DNA of 64,000 bases from Chloroflexota bacterium (GCA_036734945.1 DAIMXP010000023.1:1-64000); one strand, 5' to 3'. Positions 27,587 through 55,296 are shown, numbered from the stretch's first letter. Program-made: numbers and translations. The notes: a model not told the origin generated them from the letters alone.

Positions 27587-29127
27587 GTGGCAGACCTCCA
27601 AGCGGTCGGGATCGACCTCGGCACAACCTACTCGTCGGTAGCGATCGTCGATGCCCAGGGCAACGTCCAGCTTATCCCTAACGCCGAGTCCGAACGGTTG
27701 ACGCCGTCGGCTGTCTACTTCGATGACGACTCCATCGTGGTGGGTCAGATTGCCAAGGATAAGGCGGCCAGCGACCCCGATCGGGCGGTGCTCTTTGTCA
27801 AACGCCAGATGGGCAGCCTCCATTGGCTCTTCGGCCACGAGGACCAGCGCTACTCCCCAACCGATGTCTCCGCCATCATCCTGGCAAAGCTCAAGCGGGA
27901 CGCCGAACAGTACCTCAATCGTCCCCTTCCCTACGCCGTCATCACGTGCCTGCCTATTTCGATGACGACCGGCGACGGGCCACCATTGCGGCCGGGGAGC
28001 TAGCGGGCTTCAAGGTGCTTGATCTGGTCAACGAGCCAACCGCTGCGGCGGTCGCCTTCGGCGTGGAACGCAGCACACAGGACGAGACGGTGCTGGTCTA
28101 CGACCTCGGAGGGGGGACGTTCGACGTCACGCTCATGCATGTGGCGGGCAAGCAGATTCGGATCATCGGGACGGATGGAGATCATCAGCTCGGCGGTAAA
28201 GATTTCGACGACGCCATAATGGTGTACGCCGTTGAGGCCTTTCAACGCGAACACGGCTTCGATCCGTCCATTGACCCCTTTGTGGCGGCGGAGTTGCGCG
28301 GTCAAGCTGAACGAGCCAAACGGGAACTGAGCAAGCTGACCAAGGCATCCCTGGCTGTGCGCGCTCAAGGCAAAAGTACGCGCGCTGTGCTTTCCCGCGA
28401 ACAGTTCGAGGCGCTGATCAAGCCAAAGCTGGATACGACACTGGCGCTGGTACGCACGGTCATCACGGAGGCGAAAGTAGCACCCGGACAGGTGGACCGT
28501 GTGCTTCTCATCGGCGGCTCGACGCGCGTGCCGGCGGTGGCCCAGGCACTGGAGCGCTACTTCGGCAAGGCTCCCGATGCTTCCGTGAACCCGGATGAGG
28601 CAGTGGCGCTGGGAGCCGCGCTCATGGCCGCGCGGAAAATGGTCGACGCAGCCCCGTTGGAGGCGCCCCCGAAGGTGATCGAGAAGGTGGGTGGACTGGA
28701 AGTCACCGACGTCTCCGCGCACAGCCTCGGCATCGAAGCCTTCGTTCCCGGCACCAGTCAGCGCCTCAATAGCATCCTGATCCCCCGGAACAGCCCGATC
28801 CCCACGGAAGTCTCGCGCGAGTTCGTGACCGCCCTTCCCGGTCAGACCGCGATCAAGGTCACGATCTATCAAGGTGAATTTCCAGACCCCAACCTCTGTA
28901 ACCCCATCGGGGAGTTCACGCTCACGGGTCTGCCAGCGAACCGTTCGGCAGGACAGAAGGTAAGGGTGACGGTTTCCTGCGGAACCAGCGGTGTGGTGAA
29001 CGTGACTGCACTCGACATCGCCACGGGTCACCAGACTGCCACCGAGGTGAGTTACCGTGGCGACAAGGGTGGCGAAGCCAAGAAGAGCGCCCGAGACCGC
29101 TGGAAGACGGCGAAGCCGATCGTCTGA
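27587..29127 (+). pseudogene. Hsp70-family protein lacking the C-terminal lid, interrupted by a -1 frameshift near 27946
   Basis: N-terminus AVGIDLGTTYSSVAIV. The frame switches after AVIT (expected AVITVPAYF; the sequence atcac|gtgcct lacks 1 nt). The downstream frame reads VPAYFDDDRRRATIAAGELAGFKVLDLVNEPTAAAVAFG. Confidence 0.7.
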
Positions 29128-29193
29128 GGACGTGCAGGAGAATTCGAAGCCACGGTGCGCGTCGGGCGCAGGGAGAAGCAGTAGGGGGTATAC

Positions 29194-30456
29194 ATGCCGA
29201 ACAATCGCCACCTGGTGAACGACTTCGATATCCTCCGGCCGACGCAACTCCTCGAACGTGGCCTGCCCCTGCCGGGGTTGGACGGCCGTCACATTGTGGA
29301 ACATGGCTGGTGCTGCATCATCACCATCGACGGCGTCTACCAGGAGACGCTGGGGCCAGGTAAACACCACCTCGGTCGCTACCCCTTCTTCGGCAACGTC
29401 AAGGCCACCGCCGTCGATACGCGCATCAAGACGCTCACAATCTCTACCACCCGCGAGTTCACCATCGAGAAGCCCGTGCCGGTAGAGATCAACCTGGATC
29501 TGGCCGTCGAGTATCAGGTGAAGGATGCCCGCCGCGTCGTCCTCGAAGTCGGCCAACCGCTCACCGGACTGTACGACCGGGTGATTCAGGCAGTGCGCGG
29601 CGCCGTCGTCTTTGCGACCGTGGAAGACATCCGCCGTCAGGGTGAGACGATCGCCCAGATGACGCTGCAACGCCTGCAAGCAATGCAGCTCCCAAAGATT
29701 CTCGGCATTGAGGTCTTCACGATACTCGTCAACTCAATCAAGGCGACGGACGCCGGGAACGATGCGCTGGCCGCCCGCCAGATGGAGGAGTACACGCGGG
29801 TGCGCGACTGGCAACTCGATTCGCAAATGCTGTCCCAGTCGCAGATGACGCCGGAGTGGATGCTCATGCATCGACCGGAAGTGTACGCCCAGATGATGGC
29901 CGGCAACCAGGCCCTCATGAAGGAGTTGATCGAACGAGGCATGCTTGACCCGGCCGCCGTTCTGAGCCGACCGGTCGGCGCTACGTACGTTGATCCGCAG
30001 TCTATGCTGGCTGCCTTGACGGGCGGCGCGGCCTCGGCGTTCGGCGGCGTCCCGAGTCTTGGGTCCGGCATCCCCGCGACACACGGCTCTCCGCAGTTGC
30101 CCGAAGCCTTGCCGGGCAGTAGCCAGGCCGCGGCAGGAGGCGACATCATGGCGCGAATGCGCGAGGATATCCGCTACCTCCAGGCGCTGCCGGGAGTGGT
30201 GGTAGAGACCAAGCCCGGCATTGACGACCTCGGCGTGCCCGACGGCTCCTACGACGTGCAGGTGCAACTGCCGCGCAGCTCGGGCGGACGTCTCCAACTG
30301 TACGTGATGTGCCCACGGGGCTACCCACAGCAACCGCCGACCGTCGAACTGGACCTGGACGATCAGCCCACCCCCTTCCAGTCGGCCATCCTGCGGCGCT
30401 GGACCGGGCAGTATCTCGTGGAGATCGCCCGCGAAGCCAAGCAATACTGGGGGTGA
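29194..30456 (+). CDS. SPFH/band-7-like domain protein with a C-terminal E2/RWD/UEV-like (YPxxPP) module
   Basis: SPFH-like block YQETLGPGKHHLGRYPFFGNVKATAVDTRIKTLTISTT...GIEVFTILVNSIKATD. The C-terminus LQLYVMCPRGYPQQPPTVEL resembles the UBC/RWD YPxxPP signature. Confidence 0.5.
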   Translation: MPNNRHLVNDFDILRPTQLLERGLPLPGLDGRHIVEHGWCCIITIDGVYQETLGPGKHHLGRYPFFGNVKATAVDTRIKTLTISTTREFTIEKPVPVEINLDLAVEYQVKDARRVVLEVGQPLTGLYDRVIQAVRGAVVFATVEDIRRQGETIAQMTLQRLQAMQLPKILGIEVFTILVNSIKATDAGNDALAARQMEEYTRVRDWQLDSQMLSQSQMTPEWMLMHRPEVYAQMMAGNQALMKELIERGMLDPAAVLSRPVGATYVDPQSMLAALTGGAASAFGGVPSLGSGIPATHGSPQLPEALPGSSQAAAGGDIMARMREDIRYLQALPGVVVETKPGIDDLGVPDGSYDVQVQLPRSSGGRLQLYVMCPRGYPQQPPTVELDLDDQPTPFQSAILRRWTGQYLVEIAREAKQYWG

Positions 30457-30465
30457 GGGGACAGC

Positions 30466-31203
30466 GTGTCTGACTTCTACCGCGCCCTTCGGGTGATGCC
30501 CTCCGCCACACCGGAGCAGATCGCCAGCGCCTACGCGCGCGAACGCACGCGTGTGGAGACGCCCGGGGACACGCCGGAAACGTCAGTAGCGGCGCGCCTG
30601 ACGGCGATTGAGGAAGCGTACGTCGTGCTCGGTGACCCTGAGCGCCGCGCTGCCTACGATCGGTCGTTGGGCAGTACTCGCGCGCGCGCCTCAACCGTGA
30701 CCGTGCAGGCGCTCGTCGATGCCGAGCCAGAAGCAGGACCTTCCCCGTCGGCGGCCCCACTCGCAACCATCACTCCGTCGACGCCATCGTCGACTGCAGC
30801 CTCACTGAACGCATCCACTATCAACCTCGACTTGCTGTCTCCAGCGCCGACCGTGCGAGCCTGCCCGAATTGCGGCAATTCCAACCCGGTACAGGCGACC
30901 ATCTGCTCGTCCTGTGGCGGGCAGATGACCCGGCCTTGCCCCTATTGCGGCCAGCCGGTGGCCCTCAGCGAAGCCGTCTGCCCACGCTGCCACACCGTTG
31001 TCACGGAGTATGACCAGCGCCGTTTCGCCGTGGCGGTGCAAGGGGACCACCAGGTGCAAGAAGAGCGACGGGATCTCTCGGCCGGGGTGGAGGCACTGGA
31101 GGCTTCCAATGCCCAACGCAACCAGAACGCGCTCATCTTCTGGCTGGTGGCGCTGGCCCTTTTTGTTGGCGTCATCATCTTCCTGGTAAGCCAGGTCCAT
31201 TGA
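30466..31203 (+). CDS. J-domain-like (no HPD) double zinc-ribbon protein with a C-terminal transmembrane anchor
   Basis: FYRALRV...IASAY...LGDPERRAAYDRS is a J-fold with TPGDTP where HPD is expected. Zinc ribbons CPNCG...CSSCG and CPYCG...CPRCH. Terminal hydrophobic helix. Confidence 0.5.
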   Translation: MSDFYRALRVMPSATPEQIASAYARERTRVETPGDTPETSVAARLTAIEEAYVVLGDPERRAAYDRSLGSTRARASTVTVQALVDAEPEAGPSPSAAPLATITPSTPSSTAASLNASTINLDLLSPAPTVRACPNCGNSNPVQATICSSCGGQMTRPCPYCGQPVALSEAVCPRCHTVVTEYDQRRFAVAVQGDHQVQEERRDLSAGVEALEASNAQRNQNALIFWLVALALFVGVIIFLVSQVH

Positions 31204-31940
31204 ATGCTGCAATGACCATGGCAACGCTGCCTCCCGAGACCACCCCGGAGCAGGGTCTGATCTGCAGCAACTGCCACGCGCTCAACTCCGCCGGCGCCAG
31301 CGTCTGCACTGCCTGCGGCGTGCGCCTGGTCAACCTGCCGGACGCCGTTGTTCGGCTACAGGAGATCGAACGGCAAGAGGCGGCCGCGCATGCCGCCATC
31401 CTCCAGGCCAGGACGGCAACACGCATTGACGGCGAGTGGCGGCGAAGCGTGCGCGGACTGCGCCGCCAGATGGTCTGGCTCCTCGCGGCTGCGCTCGTCG
31501 CTGCTGCTGCTGGGCTAGGGGTCATGCGCTTCCACCAACATCAACTCGCCGTTCAGGCTCAACACCTGGCGAGCGACTACGCCGCGGGGATGCTGTGCCT
31601 GAGCGATACCAACTTCCTCTGTGCCCGCGACGACTTCCAGGCGTTGCTGCTGGAGTCCCCAGGCTATCGCGACGCGGCCGACAAACTGCGCGAGGCGCGC
31701 TATGGTCTGGCGCGCCAATACGCGGCGGGCGGCCAATGGCAAAAGGCGCTGGATGAGCTGAACGCTGTGCTCAATCAGAAGCCGGGCGATGCGCAAGCGC
31801 TGACCCAGGAGCACGATGTCTACAACCGCTGGATTGCCGATGTGTCGGGCCACGGCGACTACTTGCAAGCGCTGCGCCTGATTCTGCAGCGCGACGCCCG
31901 TTTTCCTCCCGGCCAGCCGGATATCTACAGGGAGACGTGA
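31200..31940 (+). CDS. Zinc-ribbon / TM / TPR-like repeat protein
   Basis: CSNCHALN...CTACG ribbon, one TM helix and a C-terminal helical repeat region. It overlaps the previous gene by 4 nt. Confidence 0.45.
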   Translation: MNAAMTMATLPPETTPEQGLICSNCHALNSAGASVCTACGVRLVNLPDAVVRLQEIERQEAAAHAAILQARTATRIDGEWRRSVRGLRRQMVWLLAAALVAAAAGLGVMRFHQHQLAVQAQHLASDYAAGMLCLSDTNFLCARDDFQALLLESPGYRDAADKLREARYGLARQYAAGGQWQKALDELNAVLNQKPGDAQALTQEHDVYNRWIADVSGHGDYLQALRLILQRDARFPPGQPDIYRET

Positions 31941-31999
31941 AGGTGGGGGCGCCGCCACAACGGGCGCTGTGATTTTGTCCTCAATAGAAAGGAAGAGCA

Positions 32000-32944
32000 A
32001 TGGCAACCTATTACGAGACCTTGCAAGTGCAGCCGACGGCAACGCCTGCCGAGGTCGATGACGCCTGTAACACGCTGTACAACAAGTGGCGGCGGCTGGT
32101 GACGCACCACGACCCGAGCGTGGTAAACCAGGCCAATCAGGCGTTGCAGCAGGTGGATGCGATCCGCTCCACGCTGAGTGACCCGGTCCGGCGCTCCGCC
32201 TATGACGAGGGCATCGGGTTGAATGGGGCGATTGGCGGGCTGGCGGACCCAGAGGCGGTGCTACGGGCAATGCCGGTCGTGACGATGGCGCCGCCCTCTC
32301 CGCCGCCCCCTCGACCATTGGCTGGTCCACCTGCGCAGGTAGCCGCCAGTCGGCCGGGGCTGTGGGCGTGCCCCAAGAAGGGGTGCGGCGCCGAAAACCC
32401 TCCCAATACGAAGTTCTGCTTCAAGTGTGGGACGCAGTTGGTGCAAGAGTGCCCCGAGTGTAAGAAAATGTCATCGCTGATCTCGACGAGTTTCTGCGGG
32501 GAGTGCGGTTACCGCTACAGCATAGCTAGCGAGCGGGCTGCGACGTTAGCGGCTTGGCTGGAACTACAGCAGAATGTCGAGCGGCAAAATGGGGAACTGG
32601 GAATGCTTCAGGAACAGCGCAACCACATGAAGTATGGTGGGCACATCTTCTGGATGATCGTGTTCGGGTTGGGAGCACTTGGAGTATTTTTAGGGGCGCA
32701 CTCTGACTATGAAAAGGGAGGTGCTGTGGGTGTGAGTGTGAGTGTGAGTGTGAGTGTCGTCCTCGGTGCCTTCTTGGTGGGGATTGTCGTCCTTATTGGA
32801 GTGGGGTACAGCAGCAAGCAGAAGGAGAAGGCGAAGGCTGACGCCGCCATCGTCGCCAAGCGCAGCGAGATTGAGCGAACGACTCAGATGATGGCCGGCT
32901 CGGCTCAGGTGTATCAGCAGCTTGGACAGCGCAAAGCGGGGTGA
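32000..32944 (+). CDS. J-domain-like (HHD variant) zinc-ribbon membrane protein
   Basis: YYETLQV...LVTHHDPSVVNQANQ...LSDPVRRSAYDEG. Ribbons CPKKGCG...CFKCG and CPECK...CGECG. Coiled-coil and 2 TM helices with a VS repeat encoded by (GTGAGT)n. Confidence 0.5.
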   Translation: MATYYETLQVQPTATPAEVDDACNTLYNKWRRLVTHHDPSVVNQANQALQQVDAIRSTLSDPVRRSAYDEGIGLNGAIGGLADPEAVLRAMPVVTMAPPSPPPPRPLAGPPAQVAASRPGLWACPKKGCGAENPPNTKFCFKCGTQLVQECPECKKMSSLISTSFCGECGYRYSIASERAATLAAWLELQQNVERQNGELGMLQEQRNHMKYGGHIFWMIVFGLGALGVFLGAHSDYEKGGAVGVSVSVSVSVVLGAFLVGIVVLIGVGYSSKQKEKAKADAAIVAKRSEIERTTQMMAGSAQVYQQLGQRKAG

Positions 32945-33005
32945 GATTCTGGGGTGTGACGCAAAGTAGTACGCAGCAAGCGAACGACGTGAGTACCAAA
33001 GAGCA

Positions 33006-33500
33006 CAGGGCCGCGATTGCGGGCCCAGAGGGCGCCCCCGGCCAAGTTACCGGGGCGACTGCGGTCGCTTGGGTGGGGGAGGACGGTTGGGGGCAAGGGA
33101 CGTTCGATGGGTTGGGAACAGGGCCGCGATTGCGATCGGCGGCCAAGGACGGAGGGCGACTGCGGTCGCTTGGGTGGGGACCGACGGTTGGAAAAGGCGA
33201 AAGATTGGTTCATCTTGAACAGGGCCGCGATTGCGATCGACGGCCAAGTGACGAGGGCGACTGCGGTCGCTTGGGTGGGGACCGACGGTTGCATATTCAC
33301 AGCGCCTCGGCCCCTGCTCCCCTTCACCATTCCTTGCCTCCCGCAACCGTCCTTACCCTGTCAAGCGACCGCAGTCGCCCCCGTCACTTGGCCGCCGATC
33401 GCAATCGCGGCCCTGTACTCCCCCACCCACCTTCCCGCAGCCTCCCCCAACCGCACTCCCCCGGCCAAGCGACCGCAGTCGCCGCCCTGCGATCTCCCTA
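33006..33500. repeat. Family-B REP/BIME-like cluster with three direct and two inverted copies of a roughly 50-75 bp unit (GGGCCGCGATTGCGATCGGCGGCCAAGTGACGGGGGCGACTGCGGTCGCTTGG)
   Basis: Units were read directly from the sequence. Each holds two hairpins (GGCCGC..GCGGCC and GCGAC-TGCG-GTCGC). The same unit recurs at 37.8 and 55.2 kb. Confidence 0.7.
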
Positions 33501-33549
33501 ACTAAACCGTATTGGGCGTTCACCTCAATCTCGCGTTGGGAGCCTAACT

Positions 33550-36546
33550 ATGCAGTTCCCCTATATCTTCCTTTCCAGCCGTGAATTCGTCCAGGAGGCT
33601 GTCGACTTCGACAACAATCATGGTGTGACCTACCGGGAGGTCGGCGGCGAGCATGCCATCTGGGCGGCGCGGGTGCCGTTCGTCCCAGCGATGATGTCGG
33701 AGGACTTCACGCGCCTTGGCCGGGAACGCATCCGGCTCATCATGGAGCGCCAGTTCCATTTCATCTACGACCTCGCCCGGCTGCGGGAGCATCGCGCTAC
33801 CTTTGAGCTCCGCTTCATCGCCACGCCCAATCCGGTCCCCGGCCAACCCAACCTGATCGACATGGTCTTCCTCGGCAAGGTCTTCGCGACGCGCTTCCGG
33901 GGCGGCCAGCCGCTGGCGGAACGGCTCTGGGAGAAGTTCCAGGCGACGTTTCCGGTGGAGGACCCCTTCAACTATCCGCTGGAGCCGGTGACCAACGAGG
34001 CGGAGTTTCGGAGTTACCTGGAGCCGATCCCTACCGCCAACCTCACGGCGGACTGTCTGCTCGAAATCCGCAAGTATGAAGACATGCCGATTCGCAGCAC
34101 GGCAGCGCTTGGCCGCCTGGAGCGAACCGGTGACTATGTCGCCCACCCCTTCGTCCCCTGCGTCGACTTCAACCCCATGGGCCGCTTCCTGGCGGCGCTC
34201 GCCCGCGAACCGCAACGCTGCCTGGTGGGTATCAGTCTGCGGCCTGTACGCATGTTCGACCAGGAAATCTTCAATGTCAGCTATGCCATCGGCCAATTCA
34301 AGAAGACCATCGGCGACGACGCTGGCGTCACCGAGGAGTACATCCGCTCGCGGGCCGGCATCGGCACCTTCGTCTATCAACAGTTGATGCAGGAACGCGA
34401 GGGCCTGGTGCTGGTGCGCGTTCACCTGGTGGGCGAGGACCACGCGCCTTACGGCCTCGCCGGCGCGCTTGGCTCCGAGATGATGGGCAACGCCGAGAAC
34501 GTCTACCCGACGCAGTGGTCCGCCGCCCAGCCGGCCGACGAGCACGAATTCGCTACTGCCGTCGCCAACCTGCGCTTCTTGGAGCAGGCGCACTGGGGCC
34601 ACACGATTGCGCCCTTACCACTCCAGCGCCTCCGCTACTTTGCCACTGCGCGCGAAGCATATGGCGCGTTTCGGCTGCCTGTCCCTTCCGAGTCCGGCTA
34701 CCTCCCCGGCGTGCTGGTCAAGAGTGAACCATTCGTCGCGCCGGCTGACGAATTGGAACTGCGCGAGCAGGCCCGTGCCAACCGCAACGATGCGCTCGCA
34801 GCCTCCACCGAGCAGGCCCGCAACCGCAAGGTCGGCCTTGGCGTAGTCTACCACCGCGGTTCAGCCACCGCGCAGGCATTCCGACTCAATGTGCGCGACC
34901 TCACCCGCCACGCGCTCATCGCCGGCTCCACCGGCAGCGGCAAGAGCACGACCGTCAAGCACATTCTGGTGCAGCTCTGGCTGGAGCACCGTGTCCCCTT
35001 CCTGGTCCTGTACCCGGTCGATAAGCCCGACTACCGCGAGCTGCGCGGCTTCCCGGCACTGGCCGACGAGTTACTCGTGTTCACGTTGGGTGACGAGAGC
35101 ACGTCGCCCTTCCGCTTCAACCCTTTTGAGGTACCGGATGGCCTGCTGCTCAAGACGCACCTCTCTCGCCTCATGCGAGTCTTCACCGCTGCCTTCAGCC
35201 TCCAGGATCCTCTGCCCATGATCTATCGAGAGGCGCTTCGCCAGGTCTATCGGGAGAAGGGCTGGGACATTGTCCTGGAACGCGGCGAATCGAGCCGCGA
35301 CTATCCGACCATGGCGGAGTTCTATGCGGCGATCAAACGCATTGCCGACGGGCTGGAGTACGGCCGCGAGGTCAAGGATACCGTTCGCCAGGCCTCCGTC
35401 ATCCGCATTGGCGATTTGCTGGAGAATGCCGGCCACGTCGTCAACGTGCGCCGATCTATGCCGCTCGGCAAAATTCTGAACCAGCCCACGATCATGGAGT
35501 TGGGCCGCGTCGGCTCCGCCCAGGACACCGCGCTGCTGATGGGCTTCCTGTTGATGCGCTTCACCGAGGAAGTGGAGCGTCACCCGCGTCACGCCGAGCA
35601 CCCGCACATCACCGTGATCGAGGAGGCTCACCGTCTGATGGCGGAGACGGGGCCACGCTCCGAGTCGGGCGGTGACACGCGCGGCGCGGCCGGCGAGGAC
35701 TTTGCCAATATCCTGGCGGAGGTGCGCGGCTTCGGTGAGGGCATCATCATCGCTGAGCAGATTCCCACGTTACTGGTCAAAGGCGCCATCGGCAACACCT
35801 ATCTGAAAATCATGCACTGGCTGGAGGACGCGCCGAGCTTTGAGTCCTTCGCCGACATGATGAACCTCAACGCGGAGCAACGGGAGTACGCCCGCACCCT
35901 CACGCCCGGCTTCGCCCTCCTGCGTAATCCCTACGGTCGCCCGGTCCACGTCAAGGTACCGGAGTTCGGCGATCAGCCGGGCTACTGCCGCGAGGCCCTG
36001 CCCGACAGCTCCGACGCGAGCATTCGCGCCTTTATGGAGACGCAGCGGCAGAAGCTGGCGCTGGGCGACGTACCGGTTGACCCGTGGGATATCAGTCTCA
36101 GCGCCGGTGGGTCTGCCGCCGGGGCCACTCAGGCGGGGGCGGAGCTGCTGCAGTTGCTCGTGGCGGCGCCTATGGCAACCTGCGCCTACTGTGCCCCGTT
36201 ACACGCCACGAAGCGCTGCCGCTATGCCGGGGCGGTGCGCCGCCGTCTGCTCAGCGACTCCGCCTTCGATCAGGCCCGGCAGGAGGAGCTGCGTTCCGTG
36301 CTGGCACAGGAACAGCAATCAGACCTCTGGTTGGAAACGCGCGGCTGGGGCGCCCGCGTAGAAGAGCGGGTACGATCGGTCACGCCGGCCGACCGACGCG
36401 GCATCGTCTACTGCTACCTGGCGCACTCTGCCGACAGTATGGCGCGGGGAGCATCGGCGAAGGCGGAGGGGACAACGCCCGAGGTTCGCCGCGCCCGCGG
36501 CCTGCTCCAGCAATTTGAAGCAGAATACCCAAAGCCGGAAGGATGA
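33550..36546 (+). CDS. HerA/FtsK-type P-loop ATPase (DUF87-like) with a large uncharacterised N-terminal domain and a Cys-rich C-terminal region
   Basis: 998 aa. Walker A LIAGSTGSGKSTTV at about residue 450. Walker B HITVIEEAHRL (hhhhDEAH, characteristic of HerA/VirB4/FtsK). C-terminal CAYCAPLH..KRC. Confidence 0.6.
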   Translation: MQFPYIFLSSREFVQEAVDFDNNHGVTYREVGGEHAIWAARVPFVPAMMSEDFTRLGRERIRLIMERQFHFIYDLARLREHRATFELRFIATPNPVPGQPNLIDMVFLGKVFATRFRGGQPLAERLWEKFQATFPVEDPFNYPLEPVTNEAEFRSYLEPIPTANLTADCLLEIRKYEDMPIRSTAALGRLERTGDYVAHPFVPCVDFNPMGRFLAALAREPQRCLVGISLRPVRMFDQEIFNVSYAIGQFKKTIGDDAGVTEEYIRSRAGIGTFVYQQLMQEREGLVLVRVHLVGEDHAPYGLAGALGSEMMGNAENVYPTQWSAAQPADEHEFATAVANLRFLEQAHWGHTIAPLPLQRLRYFATAREAYGAFRLPVPSESGYLPGVLVKSEPFVAPADELELREQARANRNDALAASTEQARNRKVGLGVVYHRGSATAQAFRLNVRDLTRHALIAGSTGSGKSTTVKHILVQLWLEHRVPFLVLYPVDKPDYRELRGFPALADELLVFTLGDESTSPFRFNPFEVPDGLLLKTHLSRLMRVFTAAFSLQDPLPMIYREALRQVYREKGWDIVLERGESSRDYPTMAEFYAAIKRIADGLEYGREVKDTVRQASVIRIGDLLENAGHVVNVRRSMPLGKILNQPTIMELGRVGSAQDTALLMGFLLMRFTEEVERHPRHAEHPHITVIEEAHRLMAETGPRSESGGDTRGAAGEDFANILAEVRGFGEGIIIAEQIPTLLVKGAIGNTYLKIMHWLEDAPSFESFADMMNLNAEQREYARTLTPGFALLRNPYGRPVHVKVPEFGDQPGYCREALPDSSDASIRAFMETQRQKLALGDVPVDPWDISLSAGGSAAGATQAGAELLQLLVAAPMATCAYCAPLHATKRCRYAGAVRRRLLSDSAFDQARQEELRSVLAQEQQSDLWLETRGWGARVEERVRSVTPADRRGIVYCYLAHSADSMARGASAKAEGTTPEVRRARGLLQQFEAEYPKPEG

Positions 36547-36553
36547 CCGCACA

Positions 36554-36841
36554 GTGAGCGACTTCACCTTCGACCCTGCGGCTGCCGACGCCATTGATGC
36601 AGCGGTAAACACCGCCTCACTCGACGTCAGCGGCCCGGCCCTGGAAGTACCGGAGGTGCAGGCCGACGCCGACGTGCCCGATGTCGTTCCGGCTGGCGAC
36701 GACACTACCCTCGCCACGATCCATCCGCCAGAACAGCCGGAGATCGAGCCCCACATGGAAAACGAGCCCGTCACCATCGAGACGGGCGGTAAGTCGCTGG
36801 AGCCGCCGGAAGGCTGGACTCCCCGTGGTCCCGAGGGGTGA
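36554..36841 (+). CDS. Small acidic hypothetical protein
   Basis: Asp/Glu/Pro-rich and abuts the ATPase gene. The start is uncertain (36515 ATG overlaps the previous CDS; 36554 GTG). Confidence 0.3.
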   Translation: MSDFTFDPAAADAIDAAVNTASLDVSGPALEVPEVQADADVPDVVPAGDDTTLATIHPPEQPEIEPHMENEPVTIETGGKSLEPPEGWTPRGPEG

Positions 36842-37458
36842 TAGCGATGGACGACATCGATGTCGCCGAGCCACCAACACCCGAAGTACTTGACGCACCG
36901 GCGACGGACGACGGCCAGGGAAGCCTGGATGGCTCTGTCGACTACACCATGGAGACGGATCTGCAGGTGCAGGATGCCACCGATGCGCTGCAGCAACTCG
37001 ACGGCATCTCCCCAGCTACCTGGCAAACGCTGGATGCCCAGGGCCGATTGGAGGCCCTGCAGAGCGTGGAGGACAGTATGGCGGCCGTGCAGGGTCGCCC
37101 GGGCTTGTCCGTTGAAGCGGAGGCCCTCGGCCCCGGTGTCTGCGGCGCCTACGACGGGTCGCGGCTCGTTGTGAACGCCGAGCAACTTGACAGTGCAACG
37201 CCTGTCGGTGAATTTGTGGACACTGTTGTTCACGAGGATCGCCACGCCTTCCAGGACTTCGCGGTGAGCCATCCCGGCACGGTGACCGATGGCACAGTGG
37301 TCGGGGCCTGGGCAGCGAATATGGAGCCTGGGCAGTACCTCAGTGCCGAAGACTACGGTCTAGAGGCCTACGCCGCCCAACCGATCGAAGCGGATGCCTG
37401 GGCCTATGCAGGCCGCATTGCCCAGGGCCTCGGGCTGCCCCGACTGGAGTCGGAATAG
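36838..37458 (+). CDS. Putative zincin-like metallopeptidase (HExxH) with an acidic N-terminus
   Basis: TVVHEDRHAFQD contains HEDRH (HExxH). Overlaps the upstream stop (GTGA). ATG at 36847 is an alternative start. Confidence 0.45.
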   Translation: MIAMDDIDVAEPPTPEVLDAPATDDGQGSLDGSVDYTMETDLQVQDATDALQQLDGISPATWQTLDAQGRLEALQSVEDSMAAVQGRPGLSVEAEALGPGVCGAYDGSRLVVNAEQLDSATPVGEFVDTVVHEDRHAFQDFAVSHPGTVTDGTVVGAWAANMEPGQYLSAEDYGLEAYAAQPIEADAWAYAGRIAQGLGLPRLESE

Positions 37459-37780
37459 GATGGAGATGGAACGCGATACTGTCGTGTCCCGACTGGTAGA
37501 GGAATTCGGCTATCCGCTTCACGGTGCATCGTTAGTAGCCGACAAGTTACTCGCGCTCTCACCACCAGTGCGCGAGGCCTTCATCTCGTGGTGGGACGGC
37601 GGACCCTTGCCCAGCCTCGAAATCTCGGGGGAAACCGTCCGCACCCTCATGGATCAGCACGGTCAACAGCCGATCGCCGCCTTCCTAACGCTCGACTGGC
37701 TCCAGCGCGACCCAGTCGCGGCGCGACGGGTACTACGAAAAGGTCACGATAGCGTCCGCTTCCCAGGACGCCACGTGTAG
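37459..37780 (+). CDS. Hypothetical small protein
   Basis: ATG immediately after the previous stop. 107 aa with no known motif. Confidence 0.3.
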
Positions 37781-37843
37781 GAATGGCGATGGGTGCGCCG
37801 CAAAATCCTGCACAGAAAGCGAACGGTATTTAGTGGCGTGTTA

Positions 37844-37974
37844 CAGGGCCGCGATTGCGATCGGCGGCCAAGTGACGGGGGCGACTGCGGTCGCGTTGCG
37901 AACCGTCGACGGCGCATCCAAGCGACCGCAGTCGCCCCCGTCACTTGGCCGCCGATCGCAATCGCGGCCTTGTA
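37844..37974. repeat. Family-B REP-like palindromic element (unit + 27-bp spacer + inverted unit)
   Basis: Near-perfect inverted pair of CAGGGCCGCGATTGCGATCGGCGGCCAAGTGACGGGGGCGACTGCGGTCGC. Confidence 0.7.
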
Positions 37975-38062
37975 CTCTCGGGTAATCACGTCGTCCCCTT
38001 TCTAAGCAAACCGTTGCGGCCCCCCAATGCCGATCTGGTTCGAGCCAGCCGAACACAGCCGA

Positions 38063-41000
38063 TCATTCGTTCGCCACCAGCAAGCCCCCCAACCCTGCTT
38101 CCGCCAGCGTGGCGTTGAACGGTGGCAGGTCGTCGCGCAGCAGCGCCTGGTACCGCTCGATTTGTGCCTGGCAGAGCTGCGTCAGGTGCTGGAACACCTC
38201 CTCATACTGACGCGGTGGGGCGGCGTCGGCGCTGTCGACCATGCTGGCGAGGATGGCCAGGCGGGCGTTGAGTCGGTTGAGGGGGCCGAGCGCGCTGGCG
38301 GCCTTCGGTTCGACCAGTTCCTGCTCGATGGCCGTCAAGCGCTCCACCAGGGTATCGCCGGCCTGCTGGATGCGGTCCGCTGCTGCGTTGCCTTTGCTGC
38401 GCCGTTGCCAGTCTTGCACCTGCTGGCGCAGGTCGCGCAGTTGGAGGACAGTGCGATGGACAGCGCTCAACTGCTCGTTTATACGGCCGTGCAGGTCGGC
38501 CAACGCCTGCAGGTCCTGCTCGCTCGCCGCGATACGCGGGTCCTTCAACACGGTATATTGGGCAGTCTGGACGAGTTCGCCGGCGCGCAGTTGCACCTGG
38601 TACTCGCCAGGGGGCACGAGCGGTCCTTTCAGCAGCTTCTCGGTGGCGGCATCGCCGGGCAAGGCTACGGCATCGGCGCGCCGCAGGTTCCAGACGAAGC
38701 GGTTCACGCCAACCTTGGTGGGAAGAGTAGGCGCACCGTCACCCTTGGTGGCCCCTTCCTTCTTGGCAGTGCCGGACTCAGACGTGTCGCCTTCACTGGA
38801 ATAGGAGCGGAGCTCAGTGCCGGCGCTATCCAGAACGGTGAGTGTGAGCGGCTGGGTCGGCGATTCGCTCAGCAGGTAGGTGACGACGACGCCATCCTTG
38901 GGGTTCTCCCCGGCATCAACGAGGTCCTCCACCTGCTCGCCCTGCTGGTTGCGATGGCGGCGCAGCGGGACACGCAGCGGGCCGCTGTTGCGGAAGTCGT
39001 TGGCGGCAGTACCGTTCGCCTCCCGTCCGTAGTTGCGCAGGCGAAAGGTCGGCTTCGGCGTGAATAGGTGAGCCGGCTCGGCTGCCGCTGCCGGATCAAG
39101 CTGACGCAGTGGGGTGATGTCGTCCAGAATCCAGAAGGAACGGCCGTGCGTGGCGGCGACCAGTTCGTCCCCTTTGATCGCCAAATCGTAGACGGGCACG
39201 ACCGGCAGGTTGCCGCGCGCCGGACGCCATAAGGCTCCGTCGTCGAAGGAGACGTAGAGGCCAGTCTCCGTGCCGGCGACAAGCAGGCCGCGACGCACCG
39301 GGTCGGCGCGGATCACGCGCGTGAAAACGTTGGCAGGCAGACCTTGCACGATGCGCTGCCAACTCTGGCCGTAGTCGCTGGTCTTGTAGAGGTAGGGTCG
39401 GAAGTCGTCCAGCTTGTAGCGGGTGGCGGCGATGTAGGCGGCGCCGGCGTCATAGGGTGACGGTTCAATAACGCTGATCAGGGTCCATTCCGGCAGGTCC
39501 GGCGGCGTGATGTTGGTCCAGGTCTGGCCGTTGTCGCGGGAGAGGTGGACCAGACCGTCGTCCGTGCCTGCCCAGAACAGGCCTGCCTGGTGGGGCGACT
39601 CCACAAAGGCAAAGATGGTGCCGTAGAGTTCGGCTCCGGTGTTGTCGCGCGTGATCGGCCCGCCGGAGGGCAGCATCTTTTGCGGGTCGTTGCGAGAGAG
39701 GTCCGGGCTGATCTCCTCCCAGGTGGAACCGAGGTCGCTGGAGCGCAGCGCCTTGTTGGCGGTGACGTAGAGGACGTTCGGGTCGTGGGGCGAGAAGGAT
39801 ATGGGGAAGGTCCACTGGAAGCGGTACTTGAGGTCGGCGCCGCTGCTGCCCATGCCCATGACGTCGGGCCAGACGGTGATGTTGCGCTTCTGGCCGCTGC
39901 GATGGTCGTAGCAGATCAGCCGGCCATGGCCGGAGCCGCTGCCGATGGCGCCACCAACGATGATGTTCTGGTCATCCGGCTTGAGGGCGATATAGCCGCT
40001 TTCGCCACCGCCCGGCTCAAACCAATCAAGCTGGGTGATAGCGCCCGAACTGGTGCGGCTGGGCAACGACAACGCCGAGTTGTCTTGCTGCGAGCCGTAG
40101 ACACGGTAGGGGAACTGATCGTCGGTGGCGACGTGGTAGAACTGGCCGGTGGGCTGGTTGTAAACGGAGGACCAGGAGAGGCCGCCGTCAAAACTCACCG
40201 TCGCGCCACCATCGTGACCCAGGATAAGCCGCCGCGGGTTGGTTGGATCCATCCAGAGGTCGTGGTTGTCGCCGTGGGCCGTCGGCACGGCGCTGAAGGT
40301 GATCCCGCCGTCGATGGAGCGCCAGCAACCAACGTTGAGCACCCACACGGTATCGGCATCTTGCGGGTCGGCGTGGATGTGCATGTAGTACCAGGCGCGG
40401 CGGCGCAGATCATTCTCTTCGCACAGCCGCGTCCATGTAGCGCCACCATCATCGGAACGGAAGACAGCGCCATCTTCGGACTCCACGATGGCCCAGAGGC
40501 GGTCGCGCCGGGCCGGGGAGGCGGCGATGCCGATCTTGCCGCGCACGCCGGTGGGCAAGCCGGGGTTACTCGTCAACTCCTGCCAGGTGTCGCCGCCGTC
40601 GGTCGATTTGAAGAGCCCCGAGCCGGGCCCGCCGCTGGTCAAGCTCCAGGGGGTGCGCCGGACCTCCCAGAGCGCCGCGTAGAGCACGCGCGGGTTGTGG
40701 GGGTCGAGCACGAGGTCGCAGGCGCCGGTATCTTCGTTGCGGAACAGCATGCGCTGCCAATGCGCGCCGCCGTCTACGGAGCGAAAGATACCCCGCTCGC
40801 TATTCGGGCCGTTGGCGTGTCCCAGCGCGGCCACGTAGACGAGGTCCGGGTTCGTTGGGTGTACGCGGACCTTGGCAATGTGCCTGGTGTCTTCCAGTCC
40901 GACGTTGATCCAGGTGGCGCCGGCGTCGGTGCTGCGATAGACGCCGTCACCATGGGACACGTCGCCGCGGATGCAGGCTTCGCCGGCGCCGACGTAGAGC

Positions 41001-41305
41001 ACGTTGGGATCGGACGGCGCCACGGCAACCGCGCCGATGGCGGCAGTGTGCAGATAGCCGTCGGTGATGTTGCGCCAGGAGATACCGCCATCGACGGTCT
41101 TCCAGACGCCGCCGGCACAGGCGCCGTGGTAGAAGGTCAACGGCTCGGCCGGGTCGCCGGCCACCGCCACCACGCGCCCGGCCCGGTGCGGCCCGATCAG
41201 CCGCCAGCGCATGAGGCCGGCAAGGGTATCGTCCAACGGTGCTTCTTCACGTGTCGTCAATTGATCCCGCTCCCTCGCTATCAGGTCGGAGCATAGCACA
41301 GGCAC
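38063..41305 (-). CDS. BNR/Asp-box repeat protein (sortilin/VPS10- or GH74-like beta-propeller)
   Basis: At least 9 SxDxGxTW Asp-box motifs (STDAGATW, SVDGGAHW, STDGGDTW, SDDGGATW, SIDGGITF, SFDGGLSW, SRDNGQTW, TSDYGQSW, SFDDGALW). 1080 aa. Internal Met at 41212 is an alternative start. Confidence 0.65.
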   Translation of the reverse strand: MPVLCSDLIARERDQLTTREEAPLDDTLAGLMRWRLIGPHRAGRVVAVAGDPAEPLTFYHGACAGGVWKTVDGGISWRNITDGYLHTAAIGAVAVAPSDPNVLYVGAGEACIRGDVSHGDGVYRSTDAGATWINVGLEDTRHIAKVRVHPTNPDLVYVAALGHANGPNSERGIFRSVDGGAHWQRMLFRNEDTGACDLVLDPHNPRVLYAALWEVRRTPWSLTSGGPGSGLFKSTDGGDTWQELTSNPGLPTGVRGKIGIAASPARRDRLWAIVESEDGAVFRSDDGGATWTRLCEENDLRRRAWYYMHIHADPQDADTVWVLNVGCWRSIDGGITFSAVPTAHGDNHDLWMDPTNPRRLILGHDGGATVSFDGGLSWSSVYNQPTGQFYHVATDDQFPYRVYGSQQDNSALSLPSRTSSGAITQLDWFEPGGGESGYIALKPDDQNIIVGGAIGSGSGHGRLICYDHRSGQKRNITVWPDVMGMGSSGADLKYRFQWTFPISFSPHDPNVLYVTANKALRSSDLGSTWEEISPDLSRNDPQKMLPSGGPITRDNTGAELYGTIFAFVESPHQAGLFWAGTDDGLVHLSRDNGQTWTNITPPDLPEWTLISVIEPSPYDAGAAYIAATRYKLDDFRPYLYKTSDYGQSWQRIVQGLPANVFTRVIRADPVRRGLLVAGTETGLYVSFDDGALWRPARGNLPVVPVYDLAIKGDELVAATHGRSFWILDDITPLRQLDPAAAAEPAHLFTPKPTFRLRNYGREANGTAANDFRNSGPLRVPLRRHRNQQGEQVEDLVDAGENPKDGVVVTYLLSESPTQPLTLTVLDSAGTELRSYSSEGDTSESGTAKKEGATKGDGAPTLPTKVGVNRFVWNLRRADAVALPGDAATEKLLKGPLVPPGEYQVQLRAGELVQTAQYTVLKDPRIAASEQDLQALADLHGRINEQLSAVHRTVLQLRDLRQQVQDWQRRSKGNAAADRIQQAGDTLVERLTAIEQELVEPKAASALGPLNRLNARLAILASMVDSADAAPPRQYEEVFQHLTQLCQAQIERYQALLRDDLPPFNATLAEAGLGGLLVANE

Positions 41306-45016: not shown

Positions 45017-45141
45017 CTGGCGACTGGAGTCGCGCCTAACACCCACGCTACGCGCGGGTACCCGGCGAAGCCCGCCTTCGCGGGCTGACCTAGTCCGCGC
45101 AGGCGGACTTCGCCATGGTAGCCGCGACTTCAGTCGCCAGG
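45017..45141. repeat. Family-A MITE-like palindromic element, copy 4
   Basis: CTGGCGACTGGAGTCGCGCCTAAC...TAGCCGCGACTTCAGTCGCCAGG with the internal core shared with copies 2 and 3. Confidence 0.7.
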
Positions 45142-55173: not shown

Positions 55174-55296
55174 GGCCGCGACTGCGATCGGCGGCCAAGC
55201 TAACGGGGCGACTGCCGTCGCCTGCATCATCGGATGACACGGTGCGATGCGACGGCAGTCGCCCCGTTAGCTTGGCCGCCGATCGCAATCGCGGCC
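55174..55296. repeat. Family-B REP-like palindromic element (inverted pair), preceded by a conserved leader-like TGATGCAAAGCAGTGCGCAGCAAGCGAG that is also found before the 33.0-kb cluster
   Basis: GGCCGCGACTGCGATCGGCGGCCAAGCTAACGGGGCGACTGCCGTCGCC / inverse copy. Confidence 0.65.

Follow-up and report, generated by a model that had tools for sequence, protein, structure and literature searches.

What does a cluster of nine genes do in a Chloroflexota bacterium when it joins a lidless Hsp70 to membrane-anchored J-like proteins, an SPFH protein and a VirB4/HerA-like ATPase? The cluster lies at positions 27587-37780, on the + strand, of the window, by which we mean the whole 64,000-nt stretch of DNA analysed (GCA_036734945.1 DAIMXP010000023.1:1-64000). 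We put at roughly 40% the probability that it encodes an ATPase-driven, membrane-associated apparatus for handling or exporting acidic cargo or effectors with the aid of a dedicated Hsp70.

Gene content and conservation of the cluster

A preliminary description of this DNA listed ten co-directional ORFs on the + strand, and mechanical ORF calling returns the same ORFs and coordinates. The number of genes is nine rather than ten, since the ORFs 27587-28003 and 27823-29127 are halves of one frameshifted Hsp70 gene. The genes are tightly spaced, as described, with spacers of 66, 9, -4 and 59 nt, a single gap of 605 nt and then spacers of 7 nt or less:

27587-29127, + strand: lidless DnaK-like Hsp70, frameshifted (Pfam HSP70, reading of the DNA, phmmer)
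29194-30456, + strand: SPFH (Band 7) domain, helical region, disordered linker and C-terminal RWD/UBC-like domain
30466-31203, + strand: J-like class A protein with double zinc ribbon, coiled coil and tail-anchor transmembrane (TM) helix (Pfam, alignment, TM/CxxC scan)
31200-31940, + strand: zinc ribbon, TM helix and C-terminal TPR-like domain, ZnR-TM-TPR (Pfam, TM scan)
32000-32944, + strand: J-like class B protein with double zinc ribbon and two TM helices (Pfam, alignment, TM scan)
33001-33486, no strand: five REP-like copies of ~75-100 nt, three direct and two inverted (repeat search)
33550-36546, + strand: 998-aa FtsK/HerA-superfamily ATPase
36554-36841, + strand: 95-aa acidic, Pro-rich, probably disordered protein (translations, composition)
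36847-37458, + strand: 203-aa HExxH protein, a putative zincin with an acidic N-terminal leader (alignment)
37460-37780, + strand: 106-aa partner of the HExxH protein, with an FLTLDW motif (gene order, alignment)
37842-37974, no strand: inverted REP-like pair with 53-nt arms, 98% complementary (repeat search)

We found the same gene order in ~25 non-redundant Chloroflexota loci at 36-63% protein identity, a recurrence that places the adjacency far beyond chance. The Hsp70 is present in 20/20 loci, the J-like class A protein in 21/21, ZnR-TM-TPR in 17/19 and the HerA-like ATPase in 17/17, and the contrary view, that the adjacency is unique to this genome or that the genes belong to unrelated housekeeping families, clearly fails. 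The distribution of the cluster is patchy and nearly confined to Chloroflexota. The literature searched yielded no description of an Hsp70/J-like/SPFH-RWD/ATPase cluster; it is strongly conserved in Chloroflexota and apparently undescribed so far.

Comparison of the loci brings out a conserved core that the preliminary description had missed, namely the SPFH-RWD protein, the ~1000-aa VirB4/HerA-like ATPase and the acidic cargo. Within Anaerolineae this core never occurs without a lidless Hsp70 and 2-8 J-like/zinc-ribbon proteins anchored in the membrane; in other Chloroflexota, E1/E2/JAB and membrane-anchored RWD proteins take the place of the Hsp70/J part. The Hsp70/J part is an exchangeable accessory. 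The TM scan assigns 1-5 TM helices to each of several membrane-spanning proteins of the operon, and some related loci additionally contain VTT/DedA or TM2 proteins.

REP-like repeats within and just after the cluster had been noticed, and both a repeat search and motif counts against shuffled sequence agree. Five copies of the core GGCGACTGCGGTCGCTTGG lie in 33054-33483 and two at 37880-37936; the 19-nt core has nine matches, in both orientations, versus 0.07 expected by chance. The REP-like copies occupy the 605-nt gap (32945-33549), a position taken in related loci by short spacers or by additional J-like genes. The proposal that these repeats mark an accessory cassette was not supported: the G+C profile of the window is flat, the window yielded no tRNA gene, and the genes called up to 10 kb from the cluster included no integrase. 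The near flanks carry genes for prephenate dehydratase/chorismate mutase and shikimate dehydrogenase; several related loci have defence-island or mobile-element neighbours.

The Hsp70 and the J-like membrane proteins

The Hsp70 gene of the window has a 1-nt deletion at 27946/27947 (ACG^TGC where relatives encode ITVPAYF), and with one G put back it encodes 513 aa. Its halves match Pfam HSP70 with E values of 3e-27 and 1.5e-96. The identical deletion is found in four separate assemblies from the same population, including one that shows 8 SNP differences, and the gene is intact (511-524 aa) in every other locus with full gene coverage. With its Hsp70 gene frameshifted, the cluster of the window is probably an impaired or decaying copy, and it may have no function left.

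The absence of a lid, proposed earlier, is borne out by the Pfam HSP70 match, which spans model positions 140-498 of 599. By phmmer, residues 6-488 align to positions 4-470 of DnaK (2v7y, 1e-100), and the alignment stops at SBD-beta, giving a layout of NBD, beta-sandwich SBD and a basic tail of ~25 aa. Across the family the ATPase motifs are kept, while the lid, the equivalent of the DnaK J-contact residue R167 and the canonical linker are lost, and the linker carries a 13-residue insertion.

Pfam, alignment of the J domains and a TM/CxxC scan agree with the description of the neighbouring proteins as membrane-tethered J-like zinc-ribbon proteins. The class A protein (Pfam DnaJ 5e-8, DZR 1e-8) contains four CxxC motifs and a C-terminal TM helix at residues 223-241 of 245. 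The class B protein (DZR 8e-9, DnaJ 5.5e-6) has paralogues numbering 1-6 copies per locus. In an alignment of 75 J-like domains the invariant HPD motif is absent: class B has a conserved LVTHHDP at this position (THHDP in place of HPD), and class A has no HPD motif of any kind. The changes in the Hsp70 (lid, R167 and linker), taken together with HHD(P) in class B, fit a private, co-evolved Hsp70/J pair. ZnR-TM-TPR matches Zn_Ribbon_1 (3e-4) and, weakly, TPR; the Arg-rich flank on the N-side of its TM helix (residues 91-109) indicates an N-in orientation, so that the TPR-like domain is predicted to lie outside the cytoplasm. It is missing from two of 19 loci; in one of these a divergent ZnR-TM protein takes its place.

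These genes do not form a dnaK-dnaJ-grpE operon, a point on which we concur with the preliminary description. Apart from the missing lid, no match to GrpE was found within the cluster, nor any class A DnaJ in the canonical sense (HPD, G/F region, CxxCxGxG fingers), the Cys motifs here being zinc ribbons (DZR). A closer parallel is Escherichia coli HscC with tail-anchored DjlB/DjlC, a system whose presumed site of action is the cytoplasmic membrane (PMC8215388). In both cases a non-housekeeping Hsp70 stands beside tail-anchored J-type proteins with no GrpE (PMC8215388), here by adjacency in 20/20 loci and by the C-terminal TM helix of class A. Unlike HscC, the Hsp70 studied here lacks an alpha-helical lid and an R167 equivalent and has the linker insertion; unlike DjlB/DjlC, the J-like domains lack HPD (HHD in class B, none in class A) and are accompanied by double zinc ribbons. 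The operon also adds SPFH-RWD, the VirB4/HerA-like ATPase and acidic cargo.

The SPFH-RWD protein, the ATPase and the acidic cargo

The second gene had been described as an SPFH-E2-like fusion. Its SPFH part shows the alpha/beta fold with a helical oligomerisation region after it, and residues ~318-420 form an RWD/UBC-like domain with a UBC-like alpha+beta fold and a YPQQPP motif, of the YPxxPP type, without an active site. The SPFH domain and the E2/RWD-like fold therefore stand, while an active E2 enzyme was rejected: the HPN motif and the catalytic Cys after the YPxxPP strand are lacking, and the domain is of the non-catalytic RWD type. Compared to HflK/C, stomatin, prohibitin and flotillin, this SPFH protein lacks a membrane anchor and has a C-terminal RWD/E2-like domain, a fusion of which we found no description in the literature searched.

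The ATPase, previously assigned to the HerA/FtsK type, has a VirB4/HerA-type P-loop domain with Walker A (GSTGSGKST) and Walker B (HITVIEEAH) motifs, and we place it in a VirB4-like branch. The P-loop domain is preceded by a rare domain of ~420 aa and followed by a helical C-terminal domain with four conserved Cys. Structurally the protein is nearest to VirB4, with a match to EccE3 also found, and the HerA proteins of Sir2-HerA and DUF4297-HerA are structural neighbours. PADLOC HerA and mad8 models match it locally (E 1e-11 to 2e-13); no effector model of the HerA-effector PADLOC systems was matched. In contrast to Sir2-HerA (Nezha) and DUF4297-HerA, neither a Sir2 nor a DUF4297 effector is encoded in the cluster, the ATPase has a different and much larger N-terminal domain, and the effectors carry acidic leaders and are accompanied by separate immunity proteins.

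A single polypeptide that joins an EccE3-like N-terminal domain and a VirB4-like ATPase was described in type III-A CoCoNuT extensions (Bell et al. 2024, eLife, PMC11090510), alongside a small accessory protein, with secretion or conjugation suggested as the role. CoCoNuT operons also hold Hsp70-like NBD/SBD proteins. In its EccE3 and VirB4 structural affinities our ATPase resembles the polypeptide reported there. Its genomic context differs entirely, lacking McrBC, VWA, HEPN and CnuD, and its Hsp70 has canonical ATPase motifs where CnuD is degenerate.

The proteins encoded downstream of the ATPase, referred to here as cargo, all begin M-x-D-[DFYI]. Their N-terminal leaders contain 21-38% D+E and at most 12% K+R (0-2% in most), and are often Pro-rich. 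The C-terminal domains vary among a nuclease, HExxH, GNAT+HExxH and a Cys-containing domain without a Pfam match. A common acidic leader with variable C-terminal domains suggests a polymorphic-toxin architecture. The 95-aa acidic protein, which ends in ...PPEGWTPRGPEG, is conserved in position and C-terminal motif, and the motif (PPPGWTPGGPER / PPKDWTPGGPERG) is also present in three related loci and in L038, a relative with 41% identity.

The HExxH motif reported earlier is invariant in the alignment (H129, E130, H133), and a QPxExDAW motif in the conserved domain provides a candidate third zinc ligand. Eight of nine members match the DUF6782 metallopeptidase family weakly (best E 0.011); no PDB sequence match was found. 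The partner gene lies 3' of the HExxH gene in all ten related loci having the latter. The partner has no Pfam or PDB match and is a candidate inhibitor, immunity protein or adaptor. The pair shows the same degree of conservation as the machine itself, and the HExxH protein has 230 clusters of homologues, in none of which a Pfam domain was matched. This level of conservation accords better with a core subunit or a processing enzyme than with a variable toxin.

In related loci an Endonuclea_NS_2 toxin (PF13930, E 1e-27 to 1e-35) and a YezG-like immunity protein (PF04634) are encoded directly 3' of the ATPase: in three loci by Pfam scan, in two from sequence matches together with gene order, and also in L038. 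This pairing is that of EsaD/EsaG of T7SSb. The polymorphic-toxin features thus belong to sister loci, which also have GNAT/HExxH variants; the window contains no nuclease toxin, only the HExxH protein and its partner, with putative roles. Membership in type VII secretion was rejected, as the three tandem FtsK-like domains of EssC/EccC and WXG100 are lacking. Compared to type VIIb secretion (EssC, EsaD/YeeF, EsaG/YezG), the ATPase has one P-loop domain rather than three and no TM or FHA region, the toxins have acidic, probably disordered leaders in place of helical ones, and Hsp70/J-like and SPFH-RWD proteins have no T7SS counterpart. No WXG100/LXG domain, EssA, EssB or EsaA was identified.

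Possible roles of the apparatus

The cluster had been likened to conflict or quality-control modules. The toxin/immunity pairs and defence neighbours support the former; quality control gained no specific support. We propose that the J-like/zinc-ribbon and ZnR-TM-TPR proteins would form a membrane platform tethering the dedicated Hsp70, as DjlB/DjlC are thought to do with HscC, or as Pam18/Pam16 do with mtHsp70. Hsp70 would hold the cargo unfolded and remove a bound inhibitor or immunity protein, a hexameric ATPase would thread the polyanionic leader, and SPFH-RWD would be an oligomeric scaffold surrounding the motor. The HExxH/partner pair may be conserved cargo or a processing peptidase. In favour of this reading are the conserved gene order, the NS_2 toxin/immunity pairs of related loci, the acidic leaders with their variable C-terminal domains, the membrane-spanning proteins with the predicted extracytoplasmic TPR-like domain, and the features of the Hsp70/J pair. 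Export, the role given to Hsp70 and the threading of the leader are offered as proposals. Against export, the operon proteins include no recognisable channel, SPFH-RWD has no TM helix in the TM scan, and neither a signal peptide nor a substrate of the WXG100 type was detected. The defence neighbours and the E1/E2/JAB variant, which recalls CBASS and Bil, also point towards intracellular immunity.

The chief alternative, possible if doubtful, is an intracellular anti-phage system of the abortive-infection type. Hsp70 and the J-like array would sense infection or membrane perturbation, and a HerA-like hexamer scaffolded by SPFH-RWD would free or activate nuclease/zincin effectors held by immunity or partner proteins. 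HerA-type ATPases also serve as intracellular effector scaffolds, as HerA does in Sir2-HerA and DUF4297-HerA, and the local PADLOC matches agree with such a role. Neighbours in related loci include BsoBI restriction-modification, resolvase and transposase genes, Eco57I and CHAT-WD40, and CBASS, NB-ARC, HsdM and M78. The variable copy number of J-like paralogues looks like sensor diversification, and chaperone-mediated phage sensing has a precedent in DnaJ and bNACHT25 (PMC12169576). In three sister loci, that of Oscillochloris and two metagenomic ones, a homologous SPFH-RWD and ATPase core occurs with ThiF E1, CBASS-type E2, JAB and RWD proteins, resembling the Cap2/Cap3-type genes of CBASS; the RWD domain of the window is in the same fold class, while E1, active E2 and JAB are absent from the window. 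No ubiquitin-like protein was identified in either the Hsp70/J or the E1/E2/JAB variant.

We consider a specialised role in membrane proteostasis improbable. Tail-anchored J-like proteins would recruit Hsp70, in the manner proposed for HscC and DjlB/DjlC, the SPFH scaffold would oversee folding, extraction or turnover of particular membrane or envelope proteins, and the zincin would be a protease; HflK/C is such an SPFH scaffold, around FtsH. However, an AAA+ or FtsH-type protease is missing from the operon, the distribution is patchy and nearly restricted to one phylum, and the toxin/immunity insertions, the acidic-leader cargo and the swap of Hsp70/J for E1/E2/JAB are left unexplained. Furthermore, Hsp70 is frameshifted in a natural population, which indicates that the module is dispensable.

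Very little speaks for a remnant or variant conjugative/DNA-transfer apparatus, with a VirB4-like ATPase and membrane partners on an integrated mobile element: the VirB4 affinity of the ATPase, its distant homologues on Priestia, Streptomyces and Rhodococcus plasmids, and loci adjoining a resolvase, a transposase or a gene with a primase-like translation (by eye) are offset by uninformative plasmid neighbourhoods, by gene content (Hsp70, J-like, SPFH-RWD, toxins) unlike any T4SS, and by the Chloroflexota loci examined, in which the called genes included no relaxase or VirD4 coupling protein and nothing recognisable as VirB6/VirB8 or a peptidoglycan hydrolase (no Pfam family for the T4SS parts VirD4, relaxase and VirB6/VirB8 in gene-tabled loci; operon components only in a homology screen of all loci).

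If the membrane-associated, cargo-handling apparatus is the correct reading, it might, as a tentative extension, represent a new type of protein translocation of monoderm-type Chloroflexota. A VirB4/HerA-like hexamer would thread the DNA-mimicking polyanionic leaders of toxins and other cargo across the membrane, served by a private, lidless Hsp70 tethered by HPD-less J-like/zinc-ribbon membrane proteins and by an SPFH-RWD cage, with E1/E2/JAB replacing the Hsp70 module in sister lineages.

Gene content and conserved order of the cluster

The preliminary description had counted ten genes among ten plus-strand ORFs at 27587-37780. The ORFs and their spacings hold, but ORFs 27587-28003 and 27823-29127 are one frameshifted Hsp70 gene and the cluster therefore contains nine genes, as follows.

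27587-28003 and 27823-29127, + strand: Hsp70, one gene read as two ORFs
29194-30456, + strand: SPFH-RWD protein with a non-catalytic E2-like C-terminal domain
30466-31203, + strand: class A J-like protein
31200-31940, + strand: ZnR-TM-TPR protein
32000-32944, + strand: class B J-like protein
33550-36546, + strand: VirB4/HerA-like ATPase, 998 aa
36554-36841, + strand: small acidic protein, 95 aa
36847-37458, + strand: HExxH protein, 203 aa
37460-37780, + strand: partner of the HExxH protein, 106 aa

We found that the DNA at the lesion reads ...GTC ATC ACG^TGC CTG CCT ATT..., where every Hsp70 has I-T-V-P-A-Y-F, and restoring one G after 27946 yields an uninterrupted 513-aa Hsp70. At other loci the Hsp70 is unbroken (511-524 aa) in every case of full gene coverage. 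Four separate assemblies, from different samples, share this deletion. Two are JGI contigs that match the window at 100% identity, a third shows a single gap, and the last, an NCBI MAG contig, departs from the window by eight SNPs and an 8-nt insertion. Because these four agree, one of them despite eight SNPs elsewhere, sequencing or assembly error was ruled out. Programmed frameshifting is unlikely, since the site (C ATC ACG TGC) has neither a slippery heptamer nor a homopolymer, and we saw no Shine-Dalgarno-like sequence ahead of the in-frame GTG at 27946. This population's Hsp70 is a pseudogene, or a split gene at best. Furthermore, the NCBI MAG contig, 99.9% identical to the window, has its ZnR-TM-TPR gene called in two ORFs (L009:12019-12755, equivalent to 31200-31940 of the window), which would be a second inactivating lesion and suggests continuing decay of the operon.

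A REP-like unit of approximately 75-100 nt occurs in five copies within a 605-nt gap of the cluster and as an inverted pair past the cluster end, while the same gap position in sister loci holds short spacers or extra J-like genes. The window copy, with its frameshifted Hsp70 and a REP insertion within the operon, may be decaying. A diverged inverted pair of the REP-like core, with three mismatches each, lies at 55207-55263, so the repeat family extends beyond the cluster. Known RNA elements and a CRISPR array were rejected as explanations of the repeats: Rfam gave one match, a borderline lone CRISPR-DR28 at 45091-45114 on the minus strand (36.8 against a gathering score of 35 bits), which is not part of an array because there are no tandem repeats within 40-50 kb, and it is probably due to chance. 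Promoter and terminator scans of the operon gave matches no more numerous than in shuffled sequence. G+C content is flat along the whole window, which has no tRNA genes, and the close flanks carry genes for the biosynthesis of aromatic amino acids and one BNR/sortilin-like gene; the cluster has no island signature in this genome. The latter gene is a 1080-aa ORF (38063-41305, minus strand; named BNR/sortilin-Vps10-like in the gene table) convergent with the cluster, and the long mechanical plus-strand ORFs that overlap it (38027-39067 and 39545-41296) are probably shadow ORFs of high-GC DNA.

We next considered whether the gene order is conserved. SPFH-RWD has 92 homologous clusters, and wherever one of these is assigned to a named organism the label is Anaerolineae or Chloroflexota. 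Look-ups of encoding contigs and a metagenome scan gave 25 non-redundant loci, in which the order recurs: Hsp70, zero to two J-like B genes, SPFH-RWD, J-like A, ZnR-TM-TPR, zero to five J-like B genes, ATPase. The adjacency is thus neither unique to this genome nor a chance mix of housekeeping genes, the two outcomes that would have undone the preliminary description.

Table. Presence of components among the assessable loci, out of 25 non-redundant loci
Component, present/assessable
Hsp70, 20/20
J-like A, 21/21
ZnR-TM-TPR, 17/19
ATPase, 17/17
J-like B, 24/25

At L031, one of the two loci scored negative for ZnR-TM-TPR, a divergent ZnR-TM protein occupies the slot. The largest array of J-like genes, seven including six of class B, was seen at locus L004, where an rve-family integrase/transposase gene (L004:14747-16162) lies inside the array and the operon is otherwise intact. 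In a marine Anaerolineaceae MAG (L002), the operon is bordered on one side (L002:1-7904) by a DDE transposase, a serine resolvase and a restriction-modification pair of BsoBI type, and on its other side is an opposite-strand 970-aa gene (L002:18364-21276), primase-like by eye and with no recorded Pfam match; this operon appears to sit on an integrated mobile element. Two homologues carry labels from outside Chloroflexota: a 2.7-kb contig with Hsp70, J-like B and SPFH-RWD binned as 'uncultured Nitrosomonadales' (L001, CAIOSY010000160.1), and an ATPase homologue of 53% identity labelled 'Candidatus Methanofastidiosa archaeon' (P0180). Since all other named homologues are from Chloroflexota, these labels are probably binning errors, with horizontal transfer a possible alternative.

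Chaperone components, core and exchangeable modules

The Hsp70 is DnaK-like (phmmer 1e-100 against 2v7y), has the canonical motifs for binding phosphate and adenosine, and terminates approximately 25 residues past the beta-sandwich SBD. All family members have a short basic tail that includes a Trp, and the family carries a 13-residue insertion in the interdomain linker. In DnaK, R167 touches the Asp of the J-domain HPD motif. The equivalent position across this family is D, E, G, A, K or C in the family alignment, and the R/D correspondence was also seen in a computed alignment. The J-like proteins fall into two classes, each with four CxxC that make up a double zinc ribbon. Class A has a tail anchor and no motif at the HPD position, while class B conserves LVTHHDP there and its paralogues have zero to five TM helices. 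The ZnR-TM-TPR protein is predicted, by the positive-inside rule, to be N-in with an extracytoplasmic TPR-like domain. A canonical chaperone operon was ruled out, as the cluster lacks what defines a dnaK operon, and the E2-like domain of the SPFH protein failed the test for an active E2 enzyme.

More distant ATPase homologues (41-47% identity) were used to infer the core. The Ca. Chlorohelix genes run Hsp70, SPFH, ATPase, small acidic protein and then a J-domain membrane protein of 1002 aa. At an Ardenticatenaceae locus the set comprises only SPFH-RWD, a TM protein, a zinc-ribbon protein, the ATPase and an acidic-leader protein that carries an ExK motif. In Oscillochloris trichoides DG-6 and at two metagenomic loci, SPFH-RWD and the ATPase occur with no Hsp70 or J-like gene; these are E1/E2/JAB sister systems.

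L036:4515-12811: Oscillochloris trichoides DG-6
L042:844-11877: metagenomic locus
L043:460-11778: metagenomic locus

At all three, JAB, a CBASS-type E2 and a ThiF E1 precede SPFH-RWD and the ATPase, and SPFH-RWD is 28% identical over its full length, including the RWD part. Between JAB and E2, L042 and L043 encode a pair of TM-anchored proteins that bear RWD-type motifs, and also a small conserved 61-63-aa protein (motif LEELKKRL...VKPxRW); in L036 there is just one TM-anchored RWD protein, and the homologue of the small gene is an uncalled ORF. Since relatives without Hsp70 and J-like genes keep SPFH-RWD and the ATPase, the core consists of these two and the cargo, the acidic-leader proteins downstream of the ATPase. 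Hsp70/J-like and E1/E2/JAB are alternative accessory modules.

Plasmid and phage tblastn searches with the ATPase found distant homologues only, with uninformative neighbours. Its rare N-terminal domain is also found elsewhere (proteins P0262, P0281 and P0252), both after long TPR arrays in 1440-1510-aa proteins with TraG/TrwB-like ATPase matches and after a response-regulator receiver domain. These proteins make up a broader uncharacterised family of regulated VirB4/HerA-like ATPases.

Downstream proteins and candidate cargo

The 95-aa protein is acidic and Pro-rich and ends in PPEGWTPRGPEG, a C-terminal motif that recurs even next to an ATPase of 41% identity. It may be a candidate for a ubiquitin-like or Pup-like role, given that a C-terminal Gly is frequent in the small acidic protein; no ligase accompanies it in the Hsp70 variant, and in the E1/E2/JAB variant the 61-63-aa protein lacks a Gly-Gly end. 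The 203-aa protein has an acidic leader, invariant HExxH and QPxExDAW, weak DUF6782 matches and 230 homologous clusters, and the 106-aa partner completes the trio. When the HExxH protein and its partner were compared with the PDB by sequence profile, nothing beyond a repeat artefact emerged.

Several sister loci have additional genes between the ATPase and this trio, encoding Endonuclea_NS_2 nucleases (E 1e-27 to 1e-35), and the gene next after each nuclease is a YezG-like immunity gene. The same pair follows the 41%-identity ATPase at L038, and a weak NS_2 match follows the ATPase in Ca. Chlorohelix. Other loci have a 775-aa protein that combines GNAT with an HExxH domain at its C-terminus, or one of 677 aa whose C-terminal domain contains Cys. 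PF13930 with PF04634 is the T7SSb toxin/immunity pairing (EsaD/EsaG, YeeF/YezG). The cargo of sister loci and the 95-aa and 203-aa proteins of the window all start M-x-D-[DFYI], and cargo N-terminal regions are 21-38% Asp+Glu with K+R at or below 12% (0-2% in most) and often abundant Pro. A common leader, variable toxin heads and adjoining immunity genes together have the look of polymorphic-toxin architecture. In a large survey of how polymorphic toxins are trafficked, a route by Hsp70, SPFH or HerA only is not mentioned.

Candidate mechanism and its implications

We hypothesize, with a probability of roughly 0.4, that the cluster encodes a membrane machine in which Hsp70, a J-like platform and a VirB4/HerA-like motor translocate acidic cargo. 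Composition, conservation, membrane anchoring, the structural class of the ATPase and cargo architecture are established features of the cluster. The J-like/zinc-ribbon and ZnR-TM-TPR proteins would serve as a platform in the membrane for tethering a private Hsp70, which would hold cargo unfolded and take off bound inhibitor or immunity proteins. A VirB4/HerA-like hexamer would engage the polyanionic leader and drive translocation, with an SPFH-RWD oligomer forming round the motor, and the HExxH protein may be a conserved cargo or a processing peptidase. The guiding analogy is the mitochondrial import motor, in which an active and an HPD-less J protein, Pam18 and Pam16, are paired with Hsp70. 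HscC with tail-anchored DjlB/DjlC (PMC8215388) is a second.

Several points count against translocation. No recognisable channel, signal peptide or WXG100 protein was found, and the window's HExxH pair (230 clusters) is too conserved for a typical polymorphic toxin. Furthermore, several loci lie in defence islands, and an intracellular anti-phage system, with Hsp70/J-like sensors and a HerA-like hexamer as effector scaffold, is the nearest rival and only somewhat less likely; PADLOC matches were only local (HerA/mad8) and a known defence system was rejected. A membrane-proteostasis module is improbable, and a conjugation remnant very improbable. The cluster partly resembles dnaK operons, active E2 enzymes, T4SS, T7SS and the known HerA defence systems, yet the tests that define each of these were negative, and no single known system has the full gene set. 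The architecture is not described in the open-access papers and bioRxiv preprints searched. We place it among FtsK/HerA-ATPase-centred effector systems, but the chance that it represents a novel type of translocation apparatus is substantial.

If so, this would be the first bacterial Hsp70/J-like pair dedicated to and integrated in a translocation or effector-control machine; the only analogues known to us are the motors for import into eukaryotic organelles, mtHsp70 with Pam18/Pam16 being an example. VirB4/HerA-type motors would gain a novel set of partners, and the fusion of an inactive E2-like domain to a soluble SPFH protein would be new. Our data also define an acidic, Pro-rich type of toxin leader and two uncharacterised families, the HExxH protein and its partner, and Oscillochloris trichoides DG-6 is a named isolate bearing the E1/E2/JAB sister variant. 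The swap of Hsp70/J for E1/E2/JAB on one SPFH-RWD and ATPase core is clean, which suggests that in bacteria control by chaperones and control by ubiquitin-like conjugation can be equivalent in function. Such equivalence bears on the origins of the wiring of eukaryotic proteostasis and immunity.
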